Of a stretch of 64,000 nucleotides of DNA, positions 14,208 through 15,110 are shown in pieces. Below the pieces are notes generated by a model. It was not told the origin of the DNA, made no database searches, and saw nothing but the letters and a program-made list of their open reading frames with translations. The stretch is from Candidatus Parcubacteria bacterium (lineage in GTDB: Bacteria; Patescibacteriota; Minisyncoccia; Phycocordibacterales; CAIZLB01): positions 89,905 to 153,904 of the forward strand of contig JBDKLC010000005.1 in NCBI GenBank assembly GCA_039795775.1. The letters run 5' to 3'. Position numbers and translations under genes: made by a program. Numbering within the stretch: position 1 is the stretch's first letter; each line of letters begins with the position of its first letter.

Positions 14208-15110
14208 ATGGCCAACAGGCACCTCTCACGATCAATCGTTATGCAATCCCTCTTCGAGTGGGATTTTGGTAGTCTTGCGGATTCATCTATTTCAGATATT
14301 CTTGTTCGAAATGCGGAAGAGTTCGCTCCTGGTATGAGCGACTTTTCTTTTATGAAAAATTTGGCTGATGGCGTTATCAAAAAACGACCAGACCTTGACT
14401 CTATTATTGAAAAGGCCGCTCCTGAATGGCCAATCAAAAAAATATCAACAGTAGACCGAAACGTCCTCCGACTTGGTCTGTATGAGCTTCTCTTTGCTGA
14501 TAAAAAAGAAGTACCAGCAAAAGTAGCTATCAACGAATCTATTGAACTTGCAAAGACATTCGGTGGCGAGACTTCTGGTAAATTCGTAAACGGCGTACTT
14601 GGTGCCGTCTACAAAGAAATGGGCGAGCCGGGCAAAGACGAAATTTCTCCTCGAAAAAACAAAGGCCGACAAGATATTCCATTTGAAGAAATGCCAATTA
14701 AGGCGCTTGGTGGGTCTGTTGTGTATGCAAAACATGAAGGCCAGTATTACCTCGCGCTCGTTCACGATGTATTCGGTCACTGGACCCTTTCAAAAGGAAA
14801 GCTCGAAGCTGGTGAAGATGTACAGCAGGGAACAATCCGAGAAATCAAAGAAGAACTTGGTCTCGATATTGTTCTCGAAGAAGAACTCGCAAAAAACGAG
14901 TACGTTGCATCTCATCCAGAAGAAGGTAAGATCCGAAAACAAGTTACTTATTTCTTAGGAAAAGCTGAATACGGCGACCTCACACTCGGTACAAGTGGAG
15001 GACTCGACGATGCTCAGTGGTTTAAGGTACAGGACATCCTTACTCTCAATTTCTATAACGACATTTTGCCTATTGTTACAAAGGCAATCAACATTTTGCT
15101 TAAAAAATAA
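14208..15110 (+). CDS. nusB: NusB antitermination factor fused to a C-terminal Nudix hydrolase domain
   Basis: Residues 1-140 carry NusB signatures ([40 protein letters not shown]). Residues 160-300 carry a canonical Nudix box [23 protein letters not shown]. Confidence 0.75.
   Translation: [300 protein letters not shown]

Follow-up and report, generated by a model that had tools for sequence, protein, structure and literature searches.

We found that a gene in a Candidatus Parcubacteria genome encodes NusB fused in frame to a Nudix hydrolase domain, and that this fusion is a genuine, old and clade-wide variant of NusB in Parcubacteria/Paceibacteria. The gene lies at positions 14208-15110 (+) of the stretch of DNA that we analyzed (the window; 64,000 nucleotides (nt) of contig JBDKLC010000005.1). 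NusB ranks among the best-studied transcription elongation factors and has always been regarded as a small adaptor of one domain that links ribosomal protein S10 with boxA RNA. The added domain resembles enzymes that hydrolyze diadenosine tetraphosphate (Ap4A) and other diadenosine polyphosphates (ApnA). Thousands of sequences of the fusion are public yet annotated only as NusB, and the architecture was previously unremarked. Neither full-text literature searches nor the Nudix clan review yielded a mention of a NusB-Nudix protein. The fusion is invisible to annotation-based surveys because public databases label the proteins simply 'NusB'.

The gene is one ATG-started open reading frame (ORF) of 300 codons with zero internal stops. 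Both Pfam domains scored above their gathering cut-offs, NusB at amino acids (aa) 7-136 (E 1.3e-33) and NUDIX at aa 188-283 (E 3e-13, 50.4 bits against a cut-off of 21.1). The initial annotation, which was made from the DNA alone, had proposed an in-frame NusB-Nudix fusion, and this single 300-aa ORF with two domains above cut-off bears it out. No second NusB or Nudix gene was found in the 64-kb window. The parts of the gene are:

14208..15110 (+): nusB-nudix fusion gene, 300 aa plus stop; single ORF with both Pfam domains
14208..14618 (+): NusB domain, aa 1-137, seven helices; from TIGR01951, alignment and Foldseek
14619..14696 (+): flexible linker, aa 138-163 (~26 aa), beginning with the hinge motif GEPGKD; low predicted local distance difference test score (pLDDT)
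14697..15107 (+): Nudix domain, aa 164-300, of predicted Ap4A/ApnA-hydrolase type; from PF00293 and sequence and fold matches in the PDB
14796..14864 (+): Nudix box, aa 197-219, complete in the window copy; read from the sequence

The fusion is widespread. A protein search of 5.8 billion proteins gave 120 best matches at 69-100% identity. All but one contained both Pfam domains, and most were 289-312 aa long (extremes 279 and 383). Their source labels were only 'NusB' or 'hypothetical', and they came from metagenome-assembled genomes of Parcubacteria, Paceibacterota or Patescibacteria. One of them (P0001) is the window protein over 289 aa; it is present at both NCBI and JGI, on a 509-kb contig of 'Candidatus Parcubacteria bacterium'. 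This public version begins 11 codons later, at M12 (14241 rather than 14208). The start at 14208 is more likely because the upstream residues R4 and R8 are ~90% conserved across the family. Independent assemblies contained 300-aa proteins with 89-96% identity to the window fusion. A HMMER scan of 1.84 billion cluster representatives found 149 proteins at E<=1e-30. Among the best 150 cluster representatives, 77 had both domains, and 53 of these were full-length fusions, down to 33% identity. We also compared the best-matching loci using one genome per GTDB species (80 species; 60-80% identity in the best tblastn segment). Host labels of these loci included Kaiser-, Taylor-, Nomura-, Adler-, Lloyd- and Zambryskibacteria, Paceibacteria and Minisyncoccia. 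The full fusion was intact in all of them (80/80), in ORFs of 278-333 aa that covered query residues 1 to ~300.

Separate nusB and nudix genes could in principle have been merged by a sequencing frameshift, an overlooked stop or a chimera in the assembly. The observation that speaks for such an artefact is a public contig (locus L082; GCA_013565675.1, contig JACCDV010735530.1) in which the two halves are called as separate genes. There, a single in-frame TAA (~940-950) stands where the NusB/linker junction otherwise has the conserved Tyr135 codon, and the Nudix half stays in the same frame past the TAA. Possible origins of this TAA are an error in sequencing, a nonsense mutation that arose recently, and a natural split. 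We rejected L082 as an ancestral two-gene state, since its Nudix half continues in frame, and it was the sole candidate: a true two-gene nusB plus nudix arrangement was not found. There was no stop or frameshift between the halves in the window gene or in the 80 orthologues, a check that the initial annotation had called for, and the fusion was uninterrupted in dozens of independent assemblies. With the only apparent split reduced to one in-frame TAA, an artefact is almost certainly not the explanation.

The two domains and the linker

By sequence and predicted structure, the NusB half is a true, canonical NusB. The TIGR01951 nusB equivalog matched it at 120.6 bits (cut-off 88.35) over model positions 2-130 of 131, and PF01029 matched it over model positions 3-133 of 133 (E 1.3e-33). 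With the Pfam model fully covered and the TIGR01951 cut-off exceeded, the description of this half as complete was correct. The half aligned end to end with the NusB proteins of T. maritima, Aquifex and E. coli. In these alignments the N-terminal R4 and R8, the aromatic residue F16 (at the position of E. coli Y18) and the C-terminal motif at aa 102-131 matched the solved NusB proteins, and the motif VP.KVAINE...KFVNGVL was present. The N-terminal Arg, the aromatic residue at the Y18 position and the C-terminal motif are regions through which NusB contacts RNA and NusE. R4, R8, E93, F126, N128 and G129 were 90-100% conserved in the fusion family. The near-invariant residues of the family cluster in this half (R4, R8, D64, D83, L87, R88, E93, F96, P103, E110, E113, F126, N128, G129, L131 and G132), which was also the most conserved segment (68% mean pairwise identity across the 80 species).

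We modeled the fusion protein with AlphaFold2 (AF2) from a 58-sequence alignment. The NusB half was predicted to form seven helices (aa 2-137) with pLDDT >90. In Foldseek it matched the NusB of the NusB-NusE-BoxA complex (3r2c/3r2d) with a target TM score (TMt) of 0.89 and a root-mean-square deviation (rmsd) of 1.7 Å, and 1tzv with TMt 0.84. Presumably it binds S10 and boxA as NusB usually does. Thus far the protein is like the stand-alone NusB of E. coli, Aquifex and Thermotoga, which corresponds to its full N-terminal 137 aa. It differs in the leash and the Nudix domain, which double its size: the protein is 300 aa long with an added domain, rather than a single domain of ~130-160 aa. Its setting between rpmF and rnc is also unlike the operons of model bacteria.

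The Nudix half was predicted to form an alpha/beta/alpha sandwich (aa 164-299, pLDDT >90) that superposed on many Nudix structures. The model of the whole protein had a mean pLDDT of 92.2 and a predicted TM score (pTM) of 0.67. Within the linker, pLDDT fell below 50 at aa 145-151. The linker was 18-33 aa long and the least conserved segment (54% mean pairwise identity; Nudix half, 59%; 80 species for both). The fusion is predicted to consist of two domains that fold independently and are joined by a flexible leash, both of them under purifying selection. The disordered, variable linker and the pTM of 0.67 fit recruitment rather than rigid allosteric coupling.

The C-terminus of NusB appears to be a hot spot for differing appendages in this clade, and the Nudix module is an accessory. 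In the corresponding locus of some relatives, NusB was stand-alone (144-163 aa) and led directly into rnc (L081 and L088), or was stand-alone and followed by HU (L087). In L089 (822-1499; protein P0200), a Lys-rich, histone-H1-like tail, which resembles nucleic-acid-binding tails, stood in place of the Nudix domain in an rpmF-nusB-rnc locus. P0258, P0263 and P0267 had long K/E-rich, low-complexity NusB tails of up to ~200 aa and no Nudix domain. P0157 was likewise among the NusB relatives with a Lys- or K/E-rich tail. The GEPGKD hinge was common to many Nudix-less relatives.

Sequence and predicted fold both place the Nudix half in the Ap4A/ApnA-hydrolase group, and not with RppH or MutT proper. 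In phmmer searches of PDB sequences it matched CT771 of C. trachomatis (4.7e-9), mycobacterial MutT1/Rv2985, a 'Nudix diadenosine polyphosphatase' (8.9e-8), the C. elegans Ap4A hydrolase (1.6e-6) and Ndx1 of T. thermophilus, an Ap6A hydrolase (4.5e-6), and further matches were the Aquifex Ap4A hydrolase and human NUDT2. The best Foldseek match was 3i7u of Aquifex (TMt 0.88, rmsd 2.1 Å), followed by 9cxx, 5gg5, 1vc8, 1ktg, 4mpo and 4ijx. The Nudix domain of NrtR (3gz8) was also among the top structural matches. No NCBIfam Nudix equivalog reached its cut-off on the window protein, and membership in RppH, MutT or NudC was rejected on these curated cut-offs.

The P1-phosphate site of human Ap4A hydrolase consists of a His, Lys42, Tyr82 and Lys89, and the adenine is stacked by the loop-5 Tyr on one side and by a second Tyr/Phe on the other (PMC4734340). 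The loop-5 Tyr, which follows the Nudix box, is the ApnA specificity determinant (PMC5389931). From HMMER alignments and motif comparison, without a superposed complex, we identified H191, K196, Y232, K244 and Y283 as counterparts of these ligand-contact residues. The human equivalents of H191, K196 and K244 are H37, K42 and K89, that of Y232 is Tyr82/87, and that of Y283 is F128 (C. elegans Y121). Y232 aligned with the Tyr of CT771, MutT1 and Ndx1 and was 100% conserved in the 80 species. The assignment to the ApnA-hydrolase type makes NAD caps or ppGpp less likely as ligands than ApnA or a 5'-polyphosphate.

The ApnA hydrolases closest to the Nudix half (NUDT2, the C. elegans enzyme, CT771, Ndx1, aq_158 and the N-domain of MutT1/Rv2985; E 5e-9 to 1e-3, TMt 0.7-0.88) have in common with it the HWT..KG strand, the Tyr that sets specificity, the Lys residues that bind phosphate and the second aromatic residue for stacking. 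They are only 24-27% identical to it, are free-standing (MutT1 is fused to a histidine phosphatase), and keep the catalytic Glu. RppH, and NUDT2 acting on 5'-triphosphate RNA (ppp-RNA), belong to a related Nudix clade and remove 5' phosphates from RNA, which opens the RNA to 5'-end-dependent decay; this is the activity that we propose for the fusion. RppH is free-standing, and we know of no RppH tethered to a transcription elongation factor.

RsmB/Sun (a NusB-like N-domain followed by a SAM-dependent 16S rRNA 5-methylcytosine methyltransferase) and eukaryotic Dcp2 (a helical regulatory domain followed by Nudix) are precedents for a helical RNA- or partner-binding domain joined to a catalytic domain that modifies RNA. 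RsmB/Sun membership was rejected: the models matched only aa 7-160 at 49-59 bits (cut-offs 269-540), and the fusion has no methyltransferase domain and a NusB half that scores as true NusB. Similarity to the two-domain form of Dcp2 was also rejected, as only the Nudix part superposed (rmsd 10-15 Å, TM ~0.33 over ~255 columns). NrtR and NUDT21/CFIm25 are alike in placing a Nudix domain in gene-expression machinery, with a degenerate box and ligand binding retained. NrtR differs in its partner, a winged-helix DNA binder, and in its ADP-ribose-type pocket; the fusion has NusB, an ApnA-type pocket and, in the window, a canonical box. We rejected NrtR membership on the intact window box, the NusB partner, and the absence of a detected winged helix-turn-helix domain.

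Catalytic residues and the ligand pocket

The window copy has a complete Nudix box. G197, E203, R211, E212, I213, E215, E216, G218 and L219 are all in place, and GX5EX7REUXEEXGU was matched at every defined position. The textbook box of the initial annotation was therefore confirmed for this copy, as were the catalytic Glu residues that it had singled out for checking.

The box was much less well kept across the family. All seven key residues were kept in 88 of the 119 close homologues (at least 69% identity), in 29 of the 80 species genomes and in 9 of the 53 divergent fusion clusters. The glutamate of the 'RE' pair, E212, was Glu in 38/80 species, with K, V, A, G or I elsewhere, and it was kept in 13/53 divergent clusters. 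We take E212 to be the residue mutated in the E58A crystal form of human NUDT2. E216 did not vary among the 80 species, and 77/80 had E or D at position 215. The initial annotation implied that the Nudix domain is a working enzyme; family-wide this was not borne out, as E212 is missing from roughly one in two close species and three in four divergent clusters.

Lineages that had lost E212 retained E203 in 64%, R211 in 69% and E215 in 76%. In the same lineages D187, F189, W192, T193, K196, N230, Y232, P237, G240, K241, K244, W271 and Y283 were conserved at 98-100%. The ligand-contact counterparts K196, Y232, K244 and Y283 were conserved at 98-100% in the 80 species irrespective of E212, and H191 at 69-86%. 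Pairwise identity of the Nudix half was 58.5% in E212-lost lineages, compared to 61.8% in lineages with an intact box. On neighbor-joining trees the state of E212 needed at least 20 changes among 81 taxa, compared to a mean of 27 for random labels, a count inflated by trees that are built from short sequences and poorly resolved. Because at least 20 changes were needed, the loss of E212 appears to be recurrent.

Altered Nudix boxes are not always inactive: NudD/gmm (RLX2AE) are still enzymes, and NUDT21 (RLX2EI), a factor in RNA processing, is non-catalytic (PMC5389931). Degenerate orthologues of the fusion, with R-K, R-V or A-K for R-E, resemble the 'RL..EI' box of NUDT21. Our reading is that selection across the family would act on the binding of an adenine-polyphosphate ligand, with hydrolysis optional. 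The window copy and most of its nearest relatives, which have the full catalytic set, are probably active.

A subgroup of species (L012, L028, L033, L034, L036, L040, L043, L044, L046, L049, L060 and L072) had five extra residues in the loop that comes first in the Nudix box (GKIGDxPxxxxE; GX10E instead of GX5E). The box spacing is thus non-canonical. Most of the subgroup keep RE..EE; L033 has RG.

Possible functions of the fusion

We tentatively suggest that the Nudix domain is a tethered module that binds the 5'-polyphosphate or dinucleoside tetraphosphate (Np4A)-capped end of the pre-rRNA leader in cis and hydrolyzes it where the box is intact. The NusB half and S10 would bind boxA on the nascent leader, within the antitermination and rRNA-folding complex, and the leash would hold the Nudix module within ~80 Å of the leader RNA. 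The module would bind an adenine-nucleotide 5'-polyphosphate; the likeliest one is the leader's own 5' end, either a 5'-triphosphate adenosine (pppA-) or an Np4A cap. Where the box is intact, as in the window copy, the module would probably hydrolyze the 5' group to a monophosphate, as RppH and NUDT2 do; hydrolysis is probable in this genome because its box is complete. The monophosphate end would mark the leader for 5'-end-dependent decay after cleavage by RNase III, and hydrolysis and RNase III cleavage together would clear the leader and recycle NusB and S10. NUDT2, an Ap4A hydrolase, turns ppp-RNA into 5'-monophosphate RNA like RppH (PMC8616924), and ApnA hydrolases may generally act on ppp-RNA (PMC5389931). 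We also counted the RNA-processing context for this proposal: adjacency to rnc, the gene for RNase III, is kept even at 33-35% identity.

Several observations weigh against this proposal. E212 was lost in 42/80 close species and 40/53 divergent clusters, often with E203, R211 or E215, and because it is lost so often, RppH-like catalysis cannot be the common function of the family. If a family member bound the 5' end without cleaving it, its effect would differ from that of a cleaving member and could even be the reverse. Some relatives do without a Nudix domain altogether. The fusion scored far below the cut-off of the RppH model NF001936 (22 bits against 118), and the ligand of the module is assigned by homology only. 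The Nudix half is acidic (net charge ~-6, isoelectric point 5.2), which is unexpected for a surface that holds RNA. The 64-kb window contained no rRNA operon (Rfam found one tRNA and no rRNA), and matches in the window to the boxA-like pattern TGYTCTTTRAMA (1 mismatch allowed) were no more frequent than chance (5 found, 5.8 expected).

Our results might also indicate that the Nudix domain is a sensor of alarmones. It would bind free ApnA, a stress product of aminoacyl-tRNA synthetases, and modulate NusB-dependent antitermination, and hydrolysis would reset it. We regard this, the main rival, as somewhat unlikely. It accounts well for the conservation pattern: loss of catalytic residues with ligand contacts kept is what classically marks an enzyme that has become a sensor, and a sensor explains the scattered losses (at least 20 changes, 81 taxa) more economically. 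The acidity of the domain fits a small Mg-nucleotide as ligand. In TRPM2, the fused Nudix domain NUDT9-H serves as a ligand sensor, with catalysis optional. Non-enzymatic roles of Nudix domains are recognized (PMC5389931), and NrtR, whose Nudix structure 3gz8 was among our matches, shows that a transcription regulator can have a Nudix-like domain as its effector (PMC2330246). However, the long, disordered and variable linker and the lack of a predicted interdomain interface (pTM 0.67) leave no visible route for a signal. NusB is not known to be regulated by nucleotides, and a diffusible ligand needs no tether, unless docking is ligand-dependent. The two halves might instead be mechanistically independent, an Ap4A house-cleaning hydrolase having been fused to nusB during genome streamlining. 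The small, compact genomes, the floppy linker between domains predicted to fold independently, the free-standing Ap4A hydrolases among the nearest solved relatives, and the absence of the domain from some relatives, so that it is not essential to NusB, are all consistent with this notion. However, a passenger without its catalytic Glu should decay, and E212-lost lineages keep their ORFs, an identity of 58.5% and pocket residues at ~100%. The fusion and its linkage to rnc persist to 33% identity, which argues for selection on the fused state. Independence is disfavored because the Nudix domain is retained under selection after loss of catalytic residues, and we consider it improbable.

Taken more broadly, the Nudix domain would be a reader (and an eraser where intact) of either the 5'-end status of pre-rRNA or an ApnA alarmone within the antitermination complex, with its activity repeatedly discarded; we think this unlikely to hold in full. 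The proposal of the initial annotation, that antitermination is coupled to RNA 5'-end or alarmone processing, is plausible. An entire class within the Candidate Phyla Radiation has extended NusB with Nudix and kept this module through deep divergence beside RNase III. The fusion thereby points to an unrecognized link between rRNA transcription and processing and nucleotide-polyphosphate chemistry (RNA 5' ends, Np4A caps, Ap4A signaling). If the reader function is real, it would be the first bacterial checkpoint for 5'-polyphosphate or Np4A caps, or for an alarmone, that is physically coupled to a transcription elongation factor. The intact, degenerate, tail-swapped and domain-less orthologues are a ready-made mutational experiment.

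Gene neighborhood and other features of the window

The order dnaE(-) - rnhB - rpmF - nusB/nudix - rnc - smc was highly conserved. The gene rnc was directly 3' of the fusion in 78/80 species loci, and rpmF directly 5' in 77/80. In the divergent fusions L083-L085 (33-35% identity), the gene still preceded rnc, overlapping it or 4-16 nt away, with (yceD-)rpmF on the 5' side; the divergent fusion L086 did not adjoin rnc in this way. The initial annotation had placed the gene in the conserved position before rnc. The adjacency itself was confirmed (a gap of 31 nt in the window), and the position is conserved in the Parcubacteria/Paceibacteria clade. It is not a general position of nusB, which in model bacteria is not usually located before rnc. 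The features flanking the fusion gene are:

13858..13885 (+): sigma-70-like promoter match just 5' of rpmF; consensus scan, 9/12 matches; weak, regional sites not clearly more frequent than in shuffles
13893..14165 (+): rpmF (ribosomal protein L32); PF01783 E 1.9e-13, TIGR01031 52 bits
15142..15828 (+): rnc (RNase III), the 3' neighbor; TIGR02191 259.9 bits
15833..15860 (+): intrinsic-terminator-like hairpin and T-tract after rnc; 7-bp stem with 5 GC pairs, then TTTTGTTT

In the window rpmF ends 42 nt before the fusion gene. No terminator-like site was seen in the gaps between rpmF and nusB-nudix or between nusB-nudix and rnc. The promoter-like site before rpmF, the absence of a terminator in the gaps and the hairpin after rnc suggest an rpmF-nusB/nudix-rnc unit. 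Within it rnc is probably co-transcribed with nusB-nudix; the hairpin is the likely end of the unit and the promoter-like match its possible start.

A 246-aa ORF lies between rnhB and rpmF at 12966-13706 (+). Neither Pfam nor NCBIfam matched it, and none of the 80 syntenic loci, in which rpmF comes after rnhB, has a counterpart; it looks like a lineage-specific insertion. A 232-aa antisense ORF (12906-13604) overlaps it, and either of the two may be the coding one. Directly 5' of the 246-aa ORF, at 12950-12961 (+), is TGCTCTTTAAAC, one mismatch from an E. coli-type boxA core, a kind of match that occurs in the window at chance level.

The gene smc was 3' of rnc in most loci. The SMC homologue of the window (16419-18689, +) is just 756 aa long, with SMC_N head halves matched at aa 3-741, and that of L085 is 696 aa. 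A typical bacterial SMC has ~1200 aa, implying a much shortened coiled coil or hinge in the window protein.

Elsewhere in the window, rpoB (1063 aa), rpoC (1236 aa), dnaG and rpoD form a single head-to-tail block at 23985-34135 (+), so that the genes for the large polymerase subunits directly precede those for primase and sigma-70. At 58363-59916 (+) is a gene whose 517-aa product matches AAA_21/AAA_15 (AbiEii/OLD-like ATPase) and, weakly, SMC_N. It is flanked by several ORFs without a family match (56864-58259, 60075-61367), and the region may be defense-type or mobile. ORFs of 187-485 aa without a Pfam match (E<=1e-3) were found at 1034-2068, 2432-3133, 5289-6746, 18694-19857, 34310-35092, 35361-35924, 44621-45940 and 54506-55471. 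Such ORFs are common in genomes of this kind. The one at 44621-45940 lies inside a type IV pilus-like cluster (T2SSE, T2SSF, prepilin-type N-methylation motif).

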